From a virus (taxonomy: Duplodnaviria; Heunggongvirae; Uroviricota; Caudoviricetes): DNA of 6,978 bases. Below are positions 1 to 6,978 of this stretch, piece after piece (the stretch's first letter is position 1; each line of letters opens with the position of its first letter). The stretch lies in IMG/VR virus record IMGVR_UViG_2529292719_000015; one strand, 5' to 3'. The notes under the pieces are model-generated. The model searched no databases. It was not told the DNA's origin and was given only the letters and a program-made list of their open reading frames with translations. The translations under genes and the position numbers were made by a program.

Positions 1-365
1 CTAAATCACGTCAGCGCTGGCTGTTTTACGCGTATGACAGGATACGGAGGACAGTTGTGGCGCACGTTTTCGGTGAACGCACTCTGGCCACACTGGCGCG
101 TCTTCTGAGCCTGCTGTCGGCCTTTGAGGTCGTGGTATGGATGACGGATGGCTGGCCGCTGTATGAATCACGCCTGAAGGGAAAGCTGCACGTTATCAGC
201 AAGCGTTACACTCAGCGCATTGAGCGACATAATCTGAATCTGAGACAACATCTGGCAAGGCTGGGACGGAAGTCACTGTCGTTCTCAAAATCGGTGGAGC
301 TGCATGACAAGGTCATCGGGCATTATCTGAACATAAAACACTATCAGTAAGTTGGAGTCACTACC
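1..365 (+). mobile_element. IS1 right-hand portion (insB 3' end to right inverted repeat)
   Basis: Ends at 343-365 with ATCAGTAAGTTGGAGTCACTACC, which matches the IS1 right terminal repeat (canonical ATCAATAAGTTGGAGTCATTACC as recalled). Carries the insB C-terminal reading frame. Positions 1-26 are identical to 6953-6978. Confidence 0.93.
3..350 (+). CDS. insB: IS1 transposase InsB, C-terminal part (5' end lies in the IS1 portion at the window end)
   Basis: Frame is open from position 3 ([12 protein letters not shown]...) to the stop at 348-350. Translation ...[21 protein letters not shown]...[70 protein letters not shown] matches the IS1 InsB C-terminus. The M at 57 in the ORF track is an internal GTG codon, not the real start. 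Confidence 0.9.
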
Positions 366-458
366 GTCGGTGCGGTACTGACGATATTAACCTTCCTGGT
401 GCATATCACCCTCGGCGTGTGGTGGTGGAATATGCTGATCGGCTGGAACATGCTGTAA
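366..458 (+). pseudogene. ybhI: 3'-terminal remnant of ybhI (membrane transporter) truncated by the IS1 insertion
   Basis: In-frame hydrophobic tail VGAVLTILTFLVHITLGVWWWNMLIGWNML* starts directly after the IS1 right end, with no start codon. Position upstream of ybhJ matches the K-12 gene order ybhI-ybhJ-ybhC-attB. Confidence 0.7.
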
Positions 459-601
459 ATATTCTCGTCATACTTCAAGTTGCATGTGCTGCGTCTGCGT
501 TCGCTCACCCCAGTCACTTACTTATGTAAGCTCCTGGGGATTCACTCGCTTGTCGCCTTCCTGCAACTCGAATTATTTAGAGTATATCCATTTATTATCT
601 T

Positions 602-625
602 TCTGCGCACTTCACGGTGCGCAGA
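602..625. promoter_or_regulatory. Perfect GC-rich inverted repeat (9-bp stem, 6-nt loop) just upstream of the ybhJ ribosome-binding site
   Basis: TCTGCGCAC (602-610), loop TTCACG, then GTGCGCAGA (617-625), an exact reverse complement. No T-tract follows on either strand, so it is not a typical intrinsic terminator. Confidence 0.45.
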
Positions 626-640
626 TATCTGGAGCATTTG

Positions 641-2902
641 ATGATCAAGTTATCTGAAAAAGGCGTGTTTCTCGCCAGTAATAACGAAATAATTGCCGAA
701 GAACATTTCACCGGCGAAATTAAAAAAGAAGAAGCCAAAAAAGGCACTATTGCCTGGTCTATTCTCTCTTCGCATAATACGTCCGGAAATATGGATAAAC
801 TTAAAATTAAGTTTGATTCATTAGCCTCTCACGATATTACCTTTGTTGGTATTGTACAGACCGCTAAAGCGTCCGGTATGGAACGTTTCCCGCTGCCGTA
901 TGTGCTGACCAACTGCCATAACTCACTCTGCGCCGTCGGCGGCACTATTAACGGTGATGACCATGTTTTTGGTTTATCGGCGGCCCAGCGTTATGGCGGG
1001 ATTTTTGTGCCTCCGCATATTGCGGTCATCCATCAATATATGCGTGAGATGATGGCAGGCGGCGGCAAAATGATCCTCGGGTCAGACAGCCACACCCGTT
1101 ACGGTGCATTAGGGACAATGGCAGTCGGTGAGGGCGGCGGTGAGTTGGTAAAACAGCTGCTTAATGACACCTGGGATATCGACTATCCGGGCGTGGTTGC
1201 GGTGCATCTGACCGGAAAACCTGCGCCGTATGTGGGGCCACAGGATGTGGCGCTGGCTATCATTGGCGCGGTGTTCAAAAACGGTTACGTCAAAAACAAA
1301 GTCATGGAGTTCGTTGGACCGGGCGTTAGCGCGCTCTCTACCGATTTCCGTAACAGCGTTGACGTGATGACCACTGAAACGACCTGTTTAAGTTCTGTCT
1401 GGCAAACCGATGAAGAAGTCCATAACTGGCTGGCGCTGCACGGTCGCGGCCAGGATTACTGCCAGCTTAACCCTCAACCGATGGCGTACTACGATGGCTG
1501 CATCAGCGTTGATTTAAGCGCCATCAAACCAATGATTGCGCTGCCGTTCCACCCGAGCAACGTGTATGAAATCGACACACTGCACCAGAACCTGACCGAC
1601 ATTCTGCGTGAGATTGAAATTGAGTCCGAACGCGTGGCGCACGGTAAAGCCAAACTCTCGCTGCTGGATAAAGTGGAAAATGGTCGCCTGAAAGTGCAGC
1701 AGGGGATTATCGCGGGCTGTTCTGGCGGTAACTACGAAAACGTCATCGCGGCGGCGAATGCACTGCGCGGTCAATCCTGTGGCAATGACACCTTCTCGCT
1801 GGCAGTTTACCCGTCATCACAGCCGGTGTTTATGGATCTCGCCAAAAAAGGTGTGGTAGCAGATTTGATTGGCGCAGGCGCAATCATCAGAACCGCGTTC
1901 TGCGGCCCATGCTTTGGCGCGGGCGATACGCCAATCAACAACGGTTTGAGTATTCGCCACACCACGCGTAACTTCCCGAACCGCGAAGGCTCTAAGCCAG
2001 CTAATGGGCAGATGTCAGCGGTGGCGTTGATGGACGCTCGTTCTATCGCTGCGACTGCGGCAAACGGTGGCTATTTAACCTCTGCCAGCGAACTTGATTG
2101 CTGGGACAACGTGCCGGAGTACGCCTTCGATGTAACGCCGTATAAAAACCGTGTTTATCAGGGCTTTGTGAAAGGGGCAACTCAGCAACCGCTGATTTAC
2201 GGGCCGAACATTAAAGACTGGCCGGAATTGGGTGCGCTGACTGACAATATCGTCCTGAAAGTGTGCTCGAAGATCCTCGACGAAGTGACCACCACCGACG
2301 AACTGATTCCTTCCGGTGAAACCTCTTCTTATCGTTCAAATCCGATTGGTCTGGCGGAGTTTACCCTGTCTCGCCGCGATCCCGGTTATGTTAGCAGAAG
2401 TAAAGCGACTGCTGAGCTGGAAAATCAGCGTCTGGCGGGGAATGTCAGCGAGCTGACAGAGGGGTTTGCGCGCATTAAGCAGATTGCTGGTCAGGAGCAT
2501 ATTGATCCGCTGCAAACTGAAATTGGCAGCATGGTCTATGCGGTGAAACCAGGCGATGGTTCTGCGCGTGAACAGGCGGCGAGCTGCCAGCGTGTGATTG
2601 GCGGTCTGGCGAATATTGCCGAGGAGTACGCGACTAAACGCTATCGTTCTAACGTCATCAACTGGGGGATGTTACCGCTGCAAATGGCGGAAGTACCAAC
2701 CTTTGAAGTGGGGGATTACATTTACATCCCTAGCATTAAAGCGGCGCTGGATAATCCGGGTACGACGTTTAAAGGTTATGTGATCCATGAAGATGCGCCG
2801 GTAACGGAAATTACGCTCTATATGGAAAGTCTGACTGCTGAAGAGCGCGAGATTATCAAGGCGGGTAGTTTGATTAACTTCAATAAAAACCGTCAGATGT
2901 AA
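641..2902 (+). CDS. ybhJ: Aconitase-family putative hydratase YbhJ
   Basis: 753-codon ORF from ATG 641, preceded by GGAG at 631-634. The ORF track's 617 start is a GTG inside the hairpin. Aconitase-family motifs are present (GSDSHT, CGPCFG cysteine ligands, SRRDPG). Gene order matches K-12. Confidence 0.9.
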
Positions 2903-2917
2903 AAAGCGCCATGTGAA

Positions 2918-3119
2918 TGTAGGTCGCATTCGGCACTTATTGTCGGATGCGATGCTTGCGCATCTTATCCGACCTACGAATCGCATCGAATCTGTAGGCC
3001 AGATAAGGCATTTTCGCAGCATCCGGCACTTATTGTCGGATGCGATGCTTGCGCATCTTATCCGACCTACAAATCGCATCGAACCGTAGACCGGATAAGG
3101 CGTTTACGCCGCATCCGGC
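2918..3119. repeat. REP/BIME cluster between convergent ybhJ and ybhC
   Basis: Four full REP-like palindromic units in alternating orientation (about 2942-2977, 2994-3027, 3035-3070, 3086-3119) plus a partial unit at about 2918-2936. A ~93-bp block (CGGCACTTATTGTCGGATGCGATGCTTGCGCATCTTATCCGACCTAC...) is tandemly duplicated with a few mismatches. Confidence 0.85.
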
Positions 3120-3135
3120 AAATAGTTAATTGCTC

Positions 3136-4419
3136 TTACTTCTTCGCCTCTGCAACCACTTTACTACCCACGCCGCGGTTATTGTATTCCCACATGCGGT
3201 TGTAGTTAGTGTCATTCAGATTGCGCTGTATTTCGTCGTTATCATCTACGCTGCCGGTATTACCCGCAAACGGACGATTAGAGATCACCGCATCGGCCCA
3301 CGGTTTAGCCGTGTTAAAACCTTCGTTGATGGCGCTATCACGGATCACCACCTGACCGTTGGTATTGGCATCAACATCCAGCGAGCGGCCCAGTTGCGCC
3401 ACACCATCACCGAAAGCATTGAAACGGCTGTTTACGGCGAGGAAACCGTAGTAAATGTTGGACAGCGTAGCCGGTGCAAACACATACGCTTCTTGCTGAG
3501 TACGTGAGTTCACCACGCGGAATTCGGTGTTATCGAACACCACTGCGCCGCGACCAGAAACGATATCCACATCCCCTTCAATGTAGCTGTTGGTCACCAG
3601 CGTACGCGGCTGACGATTCGTTTCCAGACGGTTCTGCACACCGCTGTTGGTGACAAAGAAGGTGTTCTGACGACCGAGAATGTTAACGTTGTTAATCTGT
3701 ACCTGGTCACCATCAGTACGCAGTGCCACCGCCGGATGGTTACCTGCATCTACGCTATCGCCCAGCGTGTTTTCGATGGTCAGATTTTGCAGTTGCAGGC
3801 CATTGTTTTGTGACCAGAAGACCGCAGAGCAGAGAACACCGATACTGTCGCTGCGTTTGCTCTGGCAGCTATCGTACATATACCACGCTGGTTTACCTGG
3901 CATATATTTGCCGCGCGGGTTGACGTCGTGACGCCAGTCGGCAGGGCTCATGCCACCATCAAGGGAAAGCCCAATCTTCACATCAATCGGTTTTTCACCT
4001 GTACCGTACAGAGTAATTCCACCCGGAGCGGCAGGGACATATACCGTTCCCTGATACTCACCAGGCATCACGGCAATATACTGGCGCTTGTTGGTACGCT
4101 TGATAATTGCCGCATCTACCGCCGCCTGAATCGTGGTATGCGTTACACCTTGAGTGCCCGCCGGGCCGACAACAAAGTCAGGTTGCGCAGGCAGGGTAAT
4201 CGGGGAAGGATTCCACGCTGCAGCACCTGGTGTCAGGGATGCAAAATAGTGTTGAGCATCGAAATTCTGCGCTTCTTTTGCCGACAGAATCGGGCGAGAA
4301 GAGGTACCAGGCGCGGTTTGATCAGAAGGACGTTGATCGGGCGGGGTTGAGCTACAGGCGGTCAGCGTCACGCCAAAAGCCAATGCCAGCGCCAGACGGG
4401 AAACTGAAAATGTGTTCAC
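3136..4419 (-). CDS. ybhC: Outer-membrane lipoprotein YbhC, pectinesterase (CE8)-like fold
   Basis: 427-aa ORF starting with GTG at 4417-4419, GGAG 6 nt upstream. N-terminal signal peptide with lipobox LTAC. Sits immediately next to the attB-derived arm, as in K-12. Confidence 0.9.
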   Translation of the reverse strand: MNTFSVSRLALALAFGVTLTACSSTPPDQRPSDQTAPGTSSRPILSAKEAQNFDAQHYFASLTPGAAAWNPSPITLPAQPDFVVGPAGTQGVTHTTIQAAVDAAIIKRTNKRQYIAVMPGEYQGTVYVPAAPGGITLYGTGEKPIDVKIGLSLDGGMSPADWRHDVNPRGKYMPGKPAWYMYDSCQSKRSDSIGVLCSAVFWSQNNGLQLQNLTIENTLGDSVDAGNHPAVALRTDGDQVQINNVNILGRQNTFFVTNSGVQNRLETNRQPRTLVTNSYIEGDVDIVSGRGAVVFDNTEFRVVNSRTQQEAYVFAPATLSNIYYGFLAVNSRFNAFGDGVAQLGRSLDVDANTNGQVVIRDSAINEGFNTAKPWADAVISNRPFAGNTGSVDDNDEIQRNLNDTNYNRMWEYNNRGVGSKVVAEAKK

Positions 4420-4454: not shown

Positions 4455-4560
4455 CGTTGAAGCCTGCTTTTTTATACTAAGTTGGCATTATAAAAAAGCA
4501 TTGCTTATCAATTTGTTGCAACGAACAGGTCACTATCAGTCAAAATAAAATCATTATTTG
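4455..4560. other. Lambda attL (B-O-P'): bacterial B arm, 15-bp common core, phage P' arm with IHF H' and Int arm-type sites
   Basis: B arm CCGTTGAAGCCT, then core GCTTTTTTATACTAA at 4466-4480, then P' arm GTTGGCATTATAAAAAAGCATTGCTTATCAATTTGTTGCAACGAACAGGTCACTATCAGTCAAAATAAAATCATTATTTG. IHF-like ATCAATTTGTTG at about 4504-4518. Arm-type repeats AGGTCACTAT, CAGTCAAAAT, AAATCATTAT at about 4527-4557. The int stop codon lies inside the P' arm, as in lambda. Confidence 0.92.
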
Positions 4561-5624
4561 ATTTCAATTTTGTCCCACTCCCTGCCTCTGTCATCACGAT
4601 ACTGTGATGCCATGGTGTCCGACTTATGCCCGAGAAGATGTTGAGCAAACTTATCGCTTATCTGCTTCTCATAGAGTCTTGCAGACAAACTGCGCAACTC
4701 GTGAAAGGTAGGCGGATCCCCTTCGAAGGAAAGACCTGATGCTTTTCGTGCGCGCATAAAATACCTTGATACTGTGCCGGATGAAAGCGGTTCGCGACGA
4801 GTAGATGCAATTATGGTTTCTCCGCCAAGAATCTCTTTGCATTTATCAAGTGTTTCCTTCATTGATATTCCGAGAGCATCAACATGCAATACTGTTGGGA
4901 TGGCAATTTTTACGCCTGTTTTGCTTTGCTCGACATAAAGATATCCATCTACGATATCAGACCACTTCATTTCGCATAAATCACCAACTCGTTGCCCGGT
5001 AACAACAGCCAGTTCCATTGCAAGTCTGAGCCAACATGGTGATGATTCTGCTGCTTGATAAATTTTCAGGTATTCGTCAGCCGTAAGTCTTGATCTCCTT
5101 ACCTCTGATTTTGCTGCGCGAGTGGCAGCGACAGGGGTTGTTGTTATATGGCCTTCAGCTATTGCCTCTCGGAATGCATCGCTCAGTGTTGATCTGATTA
5201 ACTTGGCTGACGCCGCCTTGCCCTCGTCTATGTATCCATTGAGCATTGCCGCAATTTCTTTTGTGGTGATGTCTTCAAGTGGAGCATCAGGCAGACCCCT
5301 CCTTATTGCTTTAATTTTGCTCATGTAATTTATGAGTGTCTTCTGCTTGATTCCTCTGCTGGCCAGGATTTTTTCGTAGCGATCAAGCCATGAATGTAAC
5401 GTAACGGAATTATCACTGTTGATTCTCGCTGTCAGAGGCTTGTGTTTGTGTCCTGAAAATAACTCAATGTTGGCCTGTATAGCTTCAGTGATTGCGATTC
5501 GCCTGTCTCTGCCTAATCCAAACTCTTTACCCGTCCTTGGGTCCCTGTAGCAGTAATATCCATTGTTTCTTATATAAAGGTTAGGGGGTAAATCCCGGCG
5601 CTCATGACTTCGCCTTCTTCCCAT
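4554..5624 (-). CDS. int: Lambda-type tyrosine integrase Int
   Basis: 356-aa ORF (MGRRRSHERRDLPPNLYIRNNGYYCYRDPRTGKEFGLGRDRR...GREWDKIEIK) is near-identical to phage lambda Int as recalled. It overlaps xis by 23 bp and ends in the P' arm. Confidence 0.95.
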   Translation of the reverse strand: MGRRRSHERRDLPPNLYIRNNGYYCYRDPRTGKEFGLGRDRRIAITEAIQANIELFSGHKHKPLTARINSDNSVTLHSWLDRYEKILASRGIKQKTLINYMSKIKAIRRGLPDAPLEDITTKEIAAMLNGYIDEGKAASAKLIRSTLSDAFREAIAEGHITTTPVAATRAAKSEVRRSRLTADEYLKIYQAAESSPCWLRLAMELAVVTGQRVGDLCEMKWSDIVDGYLYVEQSKTGVKIAIPTVLHVDALGISMKETLDKCKEILGGETIIASTRREPLSSGTVSRYFMRARKASGLSFEGDPPTFHELRSLSARLYEKQISDKFAQHLLGHKSDTMASQYRDDRGREWDKIEIK

Positions 5625-5820
5625 TTCTGATCCTCTTCAAAAGGCTACCTGTTACTGGTCGATTTAAGTCAACCTTTACCGCTGATTCGTGGAACAGATA
5701 CTCTCTTCCATCCTTAACCGGAGGAGGGAATATCCTGCACTCGCGTACCCATCGACGAACTGTTTCAAGGCTTCTTGGGCGTCGCTGGCGTGCGTTCCAC
5801 TCCTGAAGTGTCAAGTACAT
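5602..5820 (-). CDS. xis: Lambda excisionase Xis
   Basis: 72-aa ORF MYLTLQEWNARQRRPRSLETVRRWVRECRIFPPPVKDGREYLFHESAVKVDLNRPVTGSLLKRIRNGKKAKS matches lambda Xis. 23-bp overlap with the int start. Confidence 0.95.
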   Translation of the reverse strand: MYLTLQEWNARQRRPRSLETVRRWVRECRIFPPPVKDGREYLFHESAVKVDLNRPVTGSLLKRIRNGKKAKS

Positions 5821-5832
5821 CGCAAAGTCTCC

Positions 5833-5846
5833 GCAATTACACGCAA
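5833..5846 (-). promoter_or_regulatory. cII-binding TTGC-N6-TTGC element of the pI (int) promoter
   Basis: The minus strand reads TTGCGTGTAATTGC immediately upstream of the xis ATG, the arrangement known for lambda pI. cII itself is not encoded in this window. Confidence 0.65.
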
Positions 5847-5847
5847 G

Positions 5848-5868
5848 AAAAAACCGCCATCAGGCGGC
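5848..5868 (-). terminator. Candidate intrinsic terminator between the orf55-like gene and xis
   Basis: The minus strand reads CCGCC-TGAT-GGCGG followed by TTTTTTCTT. The stem is short (5-6 bp) and overlaps the orf55 stop codon. Confidence 0.45.
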
Positions 5869-6027
5869 TTGGTGTTCTTTCAGTTCTTCAATTCGAATAT
5901 TGGTTACGTCTGCATGTGCTATCTGCGCCCATATCATCCAGTGGTTATAACAGTCGTTGATGTTCTCTGCTTCGATAACCCTGTTGAATGGCTCTCCATT
6001 CCATTCACCTGTGACTCGGAAGTGCAT
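5860..6027 (-). CDS. Small hypothetical protein, lambda orf55-like (55 aa)
   Basis: ATG at 6025-6027 (minus) and stop at 5860-5862, translated by hand as MHFRVTGEWNGEPFNRVIEAENINDCYNHWMIWAQIAHADVTNIRIEELKEHQAA. Position and length match the 55-codon ORF next to xis in the lambda genome as recalled. No clear Shine-Dalgarno seen. Confidence 0.5.
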   Translation of the reverse strand: MHFRVTGEWNGEPFNRVIEAENINDCYNHWMIWAQIAHADVTNIRIEELKEHQAA

Positions 6028-6038
6028 TTATCATCTCC

Positions 6039-6066
6039 ATAAAACAAAACTCGCCGTAGCGAGTTC
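6039..6066 (-). terminator. Intrinsic terminator downstream of the 142-aa orphan gene
   Basis: The minus strand reads AACTCGC-TACG-GCGAGTT (7-bp stem) followed by TTGTTTTAT, about 45 nt after the gene's stop codon. Confidence 0.6.
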
Positions 6067-6110
6067 AGATATAATTTCCACCAAAGGCAGTAGTTGCTTG
6101 ATGCTAAGAA

Positions 6111-6539
6111 TTATTCAATATCTATTCCTGTAATATCTTTTATCTTTTTCCTTGCAAAGCCTTTTGCTAGTGATTTTGAAACACTCATAAGTGTACTAAT
6201 TCCCTCATCCTTAAAGTTTGTTTTTATAGCTTGCCAGACATCCTTTTGACGTAAGTCAGCAATAAAATCATGCCCTCTTGCTGTCAACCTCAGTGGTACT
6301 TCGATCCAACTATATCCAACACCTTCCCCTAACGCTTTGGACAATATATGATCGAACCCAGGTTTTCCATCAACCCTGACTATTAATTCGTAGTCACATA
6401 ATAATCGCATATGGAAAATAAAATCTTGGTCATATCTATTAAAGCCATTATCCTCTAGTTCACTAAGCATCGTGTCAGGGCCACGAGTTTTTTCGAATGC
6501 GATAAGTAGATCTTTTAGATATTGCTGGTCTAATTTCAT
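6111..6539 (-). CDS. Hypothetical protein of unknown function (142 aa), AT-rich accessory gene in the prophage pL-operon region
   Basis: ATG at 6537-6539 (minus), preceded by GGAGG with 5-nt spacing. Stop at 6111-6113. Translation MKLDQQYLKDLLIAFEKTRGPDTMLSELEDNGFNRYDQDFIFHMRLLCDYELIVRVDGKPGFDHILSKALGEGVGYSWIEVPLRLTARGHDFIADLRQKDVWQAIKTNFKDEGISTLMSVSKSLAKGFARKKIKDITGIDIE. The ORF track's longer 150-aa version starts at a TTG inside the IS1 terminal repeat and is not credible. No family recognised by eye. Confidence 0.7.
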   Translation of the reverse strand: MKLDQQYLKDLLIAFEKTRGPDTMLSELEDNGFNRYDQDFIFHMRLLCDYELIVRVDGKPGFDHILSKALGEGVGYSWIEVPLRLTARGHDFIADLRQKDVWQAIKTNFKDEGISTLMSVSKSLAKGFARKKIKDITGIDIE

Positions 6540-6604
6540 TGCCGCCTCCGGTGATGCTGCCAACTTACTGATTTAGTGTATGATGGTGTTTTTGAGGTGC
6601 TCCA

Positions 6605-6880
6605 GTGGCTTCTGTTTCTATCAGCTGTCCCTCCTGTTCAGCTACTGACGGGGTGGTGCGTAACGGCAAAAGCACCGCCGGACATCAGCGCTATCTCTGC
6701 TCTCACTGCCGTAAAACATGGCAACTGCAGTTCACTTACACCGCTTCTCAACCCGGTACGCACCAGAAAATCATTGATATGGCCATGAATGGCGTTGGAT
6801 GCCGGGCAACTGCCCGCATTATGGGCGTTGGCCTCAACACGGTTTTACGTCACTTAAAAAACTCAGGCCGCAGTCGGTAA
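6605..6880 (+). CDS. insA: IS1 InsA (transposition regulator / N-terminal part of the InsAB' transposase)
   Basis: 91-aa [46 protein letters not shown]...[10 protein letters not shown] with a CxxC...CxxC zinc-finger pattern, matching IS1 InsA. Confidence 0.93.
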
Positions 6881-6978
6881 CCTCGCGCATACAACCGGGC
6901 AGTGATGTGATTGTCTGCGCGGAAATGGACGAACAGTGGGGCTACGTCGGTGCTAAATCACGTCAGCGCTGGCTGTTT
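6856..6978 (+). CDS. insB: IS1 insB reading frame, 5' part, reached by -1 frameshift at the A6C motif (continues at window positions 3-350)
   Basis: AAAAAAC at 6856-6862 is the known IS1 slippery site. The -1 frame is open from 6778 to the window end (…[42 protein letters not shown]) and is in phase with the InsB frame at the window start. Confidence 0.8.

Follow-up and report, generated by a model that had tools for sequence, protein, structure and literature searches.

The 6978-bp stretch of DNA analysed here (the window) very probably carries the left arm of a decayed lambdoid prophage that lies between ybhC and ybhB, at the primary attachment site of lambda; an IS1-associated deletion would have removed its interior, and it would be immobile through non-expression. 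The window corresponds to the entire draft contig AQDD01000017.1 of E. coli 2872000, assembly GCA_000355475.2, and each of its ends stops within IS1. O6:H16 strains are among the closest complete relatives of this strain. Decayed lambda-like prophages at this site are common and have already been described; the present left end is ordinary and of little importance beyond its correct annotation. All sequence features marked by a previous sequence-only reading were present, and its view of a lambda module truncated by IS1 held, whereas its orphan gene, the reduction to about 2 kb and the lock through loss of attR were not supported.

The attL-int-xis-orf55 module

The Int/Xis module of the window is a lambda-type attL-int-xis-orf55 arrangement truncated by IS1 (Table 1). 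Positions 4466-6075 could be aligned without gaps to lambda (J02459, 27724-29333), giving 18 mismatches (98.9% identity), and homology to lambda stopped at 6075. Gene order, the int/xis overlap (xis covers 23 nt of the 5′-end of int), the core, the P′ arm and the pI cII site are the same as in lambda. The window differs in being the integrated form (attL) and in containing, past 6075, a DUF2513 gene in place of ea8.5. The isolated lambdoid Escherichia phage Chlobot (PP925838) was 99.8% identical over 4466-6554, a segment that takes in the DUF2513 gene. Where the window has IS1, the Chlobot genome goes on to a regulator, a UmuD-like gene, exo, bet, gam and kil.

The 15-bp att core GCTTTTTTATACTAA was located at 4466-4480 with ybhC lying 46 nt leftward. 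It is preceded by the ybhC-side B arm (...GAAGCCT) and followed by the lambda P′ arm. Since there was no mismatch to lambda within 4466-4882 (lambda 27724-28140), all P′ arm sites (P′1-3 and the IHF site H′) are identical in sequence to their lambda counterparts, and the attL had rightly been described as intact, with its B arm, core, arm-type sites and IHF site. Phage DNA upstream of ybhC, which is co-oriented, was likewise borne out.

Both recombination genes had been predicted to be full length, which agrees with proteins of 356 and 72 amino acids with complete Pfam domains. The six catalytic residues of Int (R212, K235, H308, R311, H333 and Y342) were all intact. Alignment with lambda revealed four substitutions in Int, and the differences suspected in the sequence-only reading proved exact: N163T and H164P lie in HITTTPVAATR, A245V and I248V in PTVLHVDALG. 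Residues P164, V245 and V248 are shared with Chlobot, while the exact Int protein with N163T came up on a single contig; in the closest complete genome, residue 163 is still N. Xis differs from the lambda protein by G59S. Judged by sequence, the core with its B arm, the P′ arm, Int and Xis mark this segment as a lambda-type recombination module.

Table 1. Coordinates of features in the window.
Feature	Position	Strand	Remarks
IS1, last 365 bp (insB′ end and right inverted repeat)	1..365	+	direct read; same orientation as the other IS1 piece; abuts ybhI
ybhI, last 93 nt	366-458		abutted by IS1 right inverted repeat
attL (B-O-P′)	4455..4555	.	ybhC-side B arm, 15-bp core, lambda P′ arm into int 3′-end; direct read
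int, lambda-type tyrosine integrase	4554-5624	-	356 aa, full length; PF09003, PF00589 and related Pfam domains
xis, excisionase	5602-5820	-	72 aa; PF07825 over residues 1-72, E = 3.9e-41
cII-binding repeat TTGC-N6-TTGC of pI, TTGCGTGTAATTGC	5833-5846	-	only match in window; inside the 98.9% lambda block
Terminator-like hairpin between orf55 and xis	5851..5870	-	consensus scan alone; inherited from lambda, function inferred
orf55, small lambda gene	5860-6027	-	phrog_676, E = 1.7e-39; one amino-acid change vs lambda
Terminator-like hairpin between DUF2513 gene and orf55	6047..6066	-	consensus scan alone
DUF2513 gene, lambdoid accessory gene	6111..6539	-	142 aa; PF10711, E = 8.5e-11; phrog_585, E = 2.2e-34
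IS1 left inverted repeat and insA, first 429 bp	6550..6978	+	breakpoint by alignment; runs to contig end

IS1 copies and the probable prophage remainder beyond the contig

The predicted IS1 boundary was confirmed, as homology to Chlobot and to the prophages of ATCC 8739 and F829 ended at 6549/6550, 10 nt upstream of the DUF2513 start codon. Taken together, the pieces 6550-6978 and 27-365 give an IS1 element of 768 bp with terminal inverted repeats (GGTGATGCTGCC... and ...GGAGTCACTACC), insA, the A6C frameshift motif (AAAAAAC at position 307) and insB′, and the contig yielded the Pfam matches InsA and DDE_Tnp_IS1. A second co-oriented IS1 is situated in ybhI, 6.2 kb from the IS1 at 6550, a likeness in layout to IS1-flanked composite-like segments. 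This second copy in the 3′-end of ybhI, together with the breaking of the short-read assembly in the repeats, would explain why IS1 forms either end of the contig.

The IS1/ybhI junction was present in four draft assemblies. Among the matches listed from 5426 complete genomes it was nowhere contiguous, and exact scans of viral_contigs and metagenome_contigs gave zero matches. The lack of a contiguous match in the complete-genome listing, along with a terminal overlap (bases 1-26 equal 6953-6978) and IS1 pieces amounting to exactly one 768-bp IS1, would also suit a real circle or a tandem amplification composed of one IS1 and ybhI′-ybhJ-ybhC-attL-int-xis-orf55-DUF2513, generated by replicative intramolecular transposition of IS1 or by IS1-IS1 recombination. 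We consider this very unlikely and did not adopt it as the main reading: both junctions also occur on sibling contigs, which measure 6859, 6696 and 6433 bp and have only 675, 512 and 249 nt of IS1, respectively. The smaller amounts of IS1 on these contigs imply that the terminal overlap reflects the reach of the assembly into two flanking IS1 copies. Moreover, simple IS1 insertions occur elsewhere in ybhI in 20 complete genomes, and a circle devoid of a replication origin would not persist. A simple IS1 insertion is typically flanked by a 9-bp target-site duplication; the ybhI-5′/IS1-IRL junction of such an insertion would end in a 9-bp copy of GTCGGTGCG.

As had been listed before, the window holds no attR, no cI or cII and no replication or morphogenesis gene. 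Since the contig stops inside IS1, absence from the window says nothing on the DNA beyond, and a draft contig ending in IS1 is not to be taken as the end of a prophage. The DUF2513/IS1 junction was found identically in 24 of the 5426 complete genomes. Inspection of the downstream DNA in two of these 24, FDAARGOS_1077 and 99-3165, disclosed approximately 11 kb more of decayed prophage after IS1, with a lysis cassette, fragments of tail genes and a diguanylate cyclase gene. In both genomes this DNA comprises blc′, a ybgA-like gene, an HTH gene, essD-rrrD-Rz, trkG, ynaK′, J′, tfa′, pin′ and the diguanylate cyclase gene, after which comes ybhB; the IS1-IRR/GGTATTCTCTGTTCGG sequence marks the blc′ junction. 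FDAARGOS_1077 deviates from the window by 5 mismatches across 6613 nt and its IS1 is identical. Its att cores reside at 24101 and 38272, 14,171 bp apart, and the attR adjoining ybhB (GTTCAGCTTTTTTATACTAACTT(G/T)AGCGAAACG) comprises P1, P2, core and B′ with a conserved P arm, which differs from lambda around X2 and H2. Besides FDAARGOS_1077, ATCC 8739 and F829 contain attR, and the junction counts in the 5426 complete genomes were 1920 for attL and 1921 for attR. The lambda attB is thus occupied, with both hybrid att sites present, in about 35% of complete E. coli genomes.

These data bear on the reading, drawn from the earlier proposal, in which no more than a stub of about 2 kb is left of the prophage in this genome; attR and everything else would have been lost and the stub would be permanently locked. 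The window contains no other phage DNA, and the extra co-oriented IS1 in ybhI indicates that IS1 has been active around the locus, so that further deletions are possible. Yet a reduction to about 2 kb is unreadable from a contig that terminates in IS1 and makes absence uninformative, both inspected genomes with the same junction keep their additional DNA, and attR is as common as attL, which makes a lock for lack of attR unlikely. We therefore regard the permanently locked stub as very improbable. The converse outcome that the sequence-only reading had considered, an intact prophage past IS1, was not encountered either, for the inspected relatives harbor a remnant there. From these relatives and the population counts we infer that strain 2872000 would retain the remaining prophage and attR.

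With regard to the origin of the junction, no 9-bp target duplication was found around IS1 in FDAARGOS_1077 (flanks GCCGCCTCC vs GGTATTCTC), as would be expected after an IS1-associated deletion or recombination between IS1 copies, less so after a simple insertion. The arrangement resembles IS1-mediated adjacent deletions in that a complete 768-bp IS1 occupies the deletion junction without target duplication. The right IS1 flank corresponds to the part of lambdoid genomes that immediately precedes the holin gene, at 41.7-44.7 kb in phages of 46.7 kb. Most probably, a lambda-like phage with a left arm nearly identical to that of Chlobot integrated by Int-mediated recombination of attP and attB, yielding attL. 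A later IS1-associated deletion would have fused the position 10 nt upstream of the DUF2513 start to a blc-like lipocalin moron immediately upstream of the lysis genes, and would have removed the remaining early-left operon (exo, bet, gam, kil, cIII), N, the immunity region, cII, O, P and Q.

Similar remnants are known from this site. The prophages lambda-B of E. coli B (REL606) and lambda-Cr of Crooks (ATCC 8739) are listed at ybhC-ybhB (PMC3032704), the insertion site found here. REL606, ATCC 8739, F829, FDAARGOS_1077 and 99-3165 all combine an intact int-xis-orf55 left arm with a decayed interior. Involvement of IS1 was seen in ATCC 8739 and F829, but its position and the extent of the deletion differ from the window; in REL606, orf55 is followed by different cargo, and IS1 is missing at that point. 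A presumed location of DE3 beside lambda-B in BL21(DE3) turned out to be wrong, as only DE3 lies between ybhC and ybhB.

In the closest relatives, a diguanylate cyclase gene (WP_000586337.1) adjoins attR. Judging by its position and the literature, it is probably dgcX, a gene implicated in biofilm formation. Adjacent to prophage remnants, dgcX has been reported at attB in the ETEC strains H10407 and E24377A (PMC4287979). In complete ETEC-like relatives, the int-xis stub is thereby tied to an island carrying a diguanylate cyclase gene at the reported dgcX position.

Expression and mobility of the remnant

The predicted cII site of pI was present (Table 1), and the point that pI lacks its activator was substantiated: the window lacks pL, N and cII, which leaves int and xis without a cognate activator. 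With pL, N and cII lost and two terminator-like hairpins lying between IS1 and xis, both genes may be transcriptionally silent, a conclusion drawn from the missing regulators and from terminator matches at the consensus level. According to a passage in PMC4287979 citing Prentki 1986, IS1 ends bear outward promoter elements; these could drive at least the DUF2513 gene, which counts against silence. A consensus scan found no promoter-like site on the minus strand near 6540-6600, and on visual inspection the sole -10 partner for TTGGCA of the left inverted repeat was a poor one within the ORF. Overall, the element is more likely silent from loss of pL, N and cII than locked by loss of attR. It would accordingly be lack of expression, not lack of sites, that renders it immobile, and the element could still respond to a superinfecting lambdoid phage that provides Int and Xis, or cII for the retained pI. 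Excision of such remnants in trans is a reasonable but minor question.

A more far-reaching explanation would be that int, xis, attL and attR are under selection as parts of a domesticated, excisable dgcX island that is triggered by cII of an incoming phage acting on pI. In keeping with this, remnants that have decayed in very different ways still have int and xis intact, the identical Xis accession WP_001303849.1 recurs in ETEC-like strains, Crooks and REL606, pI with its cII site has been retained, and both att junctions are near-universal among occupied sites. Against it, the high identity to lambda (98.9%) fits a recent acquisition that left too little time for decay, and int exhibits four nonsynonymous and no synonymous changes relative to lambda and thus no sign of purifying selection. 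Domestication is for these reasons extremely improbable. Highly improbable too, in our estimation, is a dgcX island that stays silent on its own and leaves the chromosome once a superinfecting lambdoid phage brings in cII, or Int and Xis; if true, excision would restore attB or remove the island. A prophage remnant kept immobile by non-expression is the reading we prefer.

The DUF2513 gene

The gene between orf55 and IS1 had been called an orphan. This designation has to be dropped, since its product belongs to DUF2513 (PF10711, 42.5 bits against a gathering cut-off of 29.6; phrog_585) and the gene occupies the same slot in Chlobot (99.8%) and in the prophages of ATCC 8739 and F829, the slot that is filled by ea8.5 in lambda. 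Homologues numbered 99, with named examples from Escherichia, Citrobacter, Serratia, Yersinia, Pantoea and Cronobacter. A literature search retrieved no paper mentioning DUF2513, and a PADLOC search assigned neither the DUF2513 protein nor orf55 to a defence-protein family at E <= 0.1. The sole match of a PDB sequence search with the DUF2513 protein had E = 0.44. Its AlphaFold2 model (pLDDT 92) gave only weak PadR/MarR-like winged-helix matches with Foldseek against the PDB (E >= 0.07), and on the basis of this model the protein is possibly a PadR/MarR-like DNA binder.

In a search of plasmids, most matches to ybhJ-ybhC fell in records of at least 0.7 Mb, which probably stem from chromosomes. 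The int-xis-orf55-DUF2513 segment was also present, at 99.8%, in a few plasmid records of 145-455 kb.

Prophage DNA on both sides of the IS1 element in complete relatives

Alignments with the isolated lambdoid Escherichia phage Chlobot (PP925838) and with the lambda-site prophages of ATCC 8739 and F829 revealed that phage homology stops at 6549/6550, where the left inverted repeat of IS1 begins, at a distance of 10 nt upstream from the start codon (ATG) of the DUF2513 ORF. The same DUF2513|IS1 junction exists in the complete E. coli genomes FDAARGOS_1077 and 99-3165. The FDAARGOS_1077 chromosome exhibited five mismatches to the window in 6613 nt and an identical IS1, for which no target duplication was found. 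The DNA directly to the right of this IS1 is lambdoid and matches a stretch of Lambda-like phages that closely precedes the holin gene (41.7-44.7 kb in genomes of 46.7 kb). Both genomes continue beyond IS1 with a lipocalin gene that is truncated, one ybgA-like and one HTH gene, essD-rrrD-Rz and trkG, and further on with ynaK, J, tail-fibre and pin fragments, a diguanylate cyclase gene and finally ybhB-bioA. On sequence grounds, the lambdoid right flank, the missing target duplication and the content beyond IS1 indicate that the element marks an IS1-associated internal deletion within a single prophage. The deletion would have taken out all genes starting with the one upstream of DUF2513 and extending over exo-bet-gam-kil-cIII, N, the immunity region, cII, O, P and Q.

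The lambda core is present twice in FDAARGOS_1077, in attL and in a second copy 14,171 bp away and 105 bp from ybhB. A lambda-like P arm with conserved P1, P2 and X1 lies ahead of the second core and a B' arm behind it; the same arrangement was found in ATCC 8739 and F829. The sequence-only reading had inferred that only about 2 kb of the prophage is left and that, attR being absent, it is probably locked in place. This claim, on which the closest complete genomes bear rather than the window contig alone, is unsupported by them, since the prophage remainder lies beyond IS1 and attR is present in FDAARGOS_1077.

Some further features of this remnant were recorded. The B' arm of FDAARGOS_1077 contains a G-to-T change (CTTTAGCG), and trkG and the lysis cassette persist between IS1 and attR. 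Directly inside attR lies a gene for a MASE4-type sensor diguanylate cyclase (36300-38376 of the extracted locus L001). Judged by its position and by published descriptions, the diguanylate cyclase gene of the relatives is probably dgcX, which adjoins prophages or remnants at attB in ETEC H10407 and E24377A (Richter et al., PMC4287979; see also PMC10459773).

Recombination module and mobility

Features of the window
Feature	Position	Strand	Remark
IS1, last 365 bp	1-365
ybhI, last 93 nt	366-458
ybhJ	641-2902
REP/BIME repeats	2926-3120
ybhC	3136-4419	minus
attL, 15-bp lambda core	4466-4480		between ybhC and int
int	4554-5624	minus
xis	5602-5820	minus
cII repeat of pI, TTGCGTGTAATTGC	5833-5846	minus
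orf55	5860-6027	minus
Two terminator-like hairpins	6066-6047 and 5870-5851	minus	consensus-level prediction
142-aa ORF (DUF2513)	6111-6539	minus
IS1, first 429 bp	6550-6978

Lambda 27724-29333 (J02459) could be aligned to window 4466-6075 without gaps and with 18 mismatches. None of these precedes 4883, so the P' arm is the same as that of lambda. Int differs from lambda Int by N163T, H164P, A245V and I248V, exactly the residues that the sequence-only reading had suspected, and Xis by G59S. Int retains its six catalytic residues, and both proteins have complete Pfam domains. The Int of Chlobot carries three of the four substitutions. An exact look-up of the Int protein yielded one contig only, AQDD01000017.1 (GCA_000355475.2), where it is named 'integrase [Escherichia coli 2872000]'; with its 6978 bp, this contig corresponds to the entire window. 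As N163T is private to the window contig, it may be a sequencing error. Relative to lambda, int contains four nonsynonymous and no synonymous changes, xis and orf55 five synonymous and one nonsynonymous change each, numbers too small for significance.

Thus the core, the lambda-like int and xis genes, the cII site of pI and the IS1 boundary noticed by the sequence-only reading were all found, and neither the cis sites nor the two recombination genes are damaged. Nevertheless, int and xis are probably unexpressed, since pL and N are absent and pI lacks its activator cII. IS1 ends are reported to carry outward promoter elements (Richter et al., PMC4287979). Transcription coming from IS1 would hit the two predicted hairpins with no N to suppress them. 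Hence, the element is probably immobile through silence and not through loss of attR. Int plus Xis, or cII, provided by a superinfecting lambdoid phage could in principle act on it.

The DUF2513 gene and relatives of the locus

The 142-aa product matched Pfam DUF2513 (E = 8.5e-11, over the gathering score) and phrog_585 (function unknown). Ninety-nine homologues were detected, the named ones stemming from several enterobacterial genera. The protein gave no PADLOC match and no meaningful match to PDB sequences. Its AlphaFold2 model was confident (pLDDT 92.1), and Foldseek searches with this model disclosed merely weak matches (E at least 0.07) to PadR/MarR-type winged-helix proteins. The gene, initially taken for an orphan, belongs to this family and resides at the equivalent position in Chlobot (99.8% DNA identity), ATCC 8739 and F829, whereas in lambda the slot is occupied by ea8.5. 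Accessory genes of this sort are ordinary in lambdoid phages.

A scan of 5426 complete E. coli genomes found the attL junction in 1920 and an attR junction in 1921; at least 80% of the window was present in 1408 and the exact DUF2513|IS1 junction in 24. The locus is of an ordinary, already described kind, and its description from the sequence was accurate. At ybhC-ybhB, 'lambda-B' and 'lambda-Cr' were entered in the E. coli W genome paper (PMC3032704). The E. coli B strain REL606 possesses the same int-xis-orf55 with other cargo, and ATCC 8739 and F829 contain a less decayed version of the prophage, with IS1 lying 1.3 kb further in. In these two prophages IS1 is present in multiple copies, in F829 up to four, whose differing positions and orientations point to a repeated, independent erosion of the lambda-site locus by IS1. 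The int-xis-orf55-DUF2513 segment also occurs at 99.8% on plasmid records of 145-455 kb (NZ_CP022155.1, NZ_CP034659.1, NZ_CP081775.1 and NZ_CP081783.1), starting at the att core, which suggests that a lambdoid prophage either inserted into these plasmids or was joined to them in assembly.

Contig ends and the region around ybhI

Both ends of the window lie in IS1; bases 1-26 are identical to 6953-6978, and the two IS1 pieces sum to exactly one 768-bp IS1. The end identity would suit a circular molecule. This possibility was rejected because in sibling assemblies the IS1|ybhI and DUF2513|IS1 junctions reside together on contigs of 6859, 6696 and 6433 bp that reach less far into IS1. The overlap therefore reflects over-extension into two flanking copies, and the window is the unique segment between two co-oriented IS1 elements, the assembly breaking in the repeat.

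The right end of IS1 joins ybhI at 365|366, 93 nt before the stop codon, and cuts off the last 30 codons. This junction is real, as it is present in four draft assemblies; the matches listed from the 5426 complete genomes included no contiguous one. IS1 was located near this stretch of ybhI in 20 of these genomes; AGR6128, the one that was examined, has it within ybhI at a position other than in the window. Hence, IS1 may have hit ybhI repeatedly.

The spacer between ybhJ and ybhC, 233 nt in the window versus 140 nt in REL606, contains tandem REP/BIME-type repeats composed of a 65-nt unit and a 35-nt unit, each present twice. Rfam naRNA4 (RF02564) matched 2997-3067 with a score barely over the gathering cut-off.
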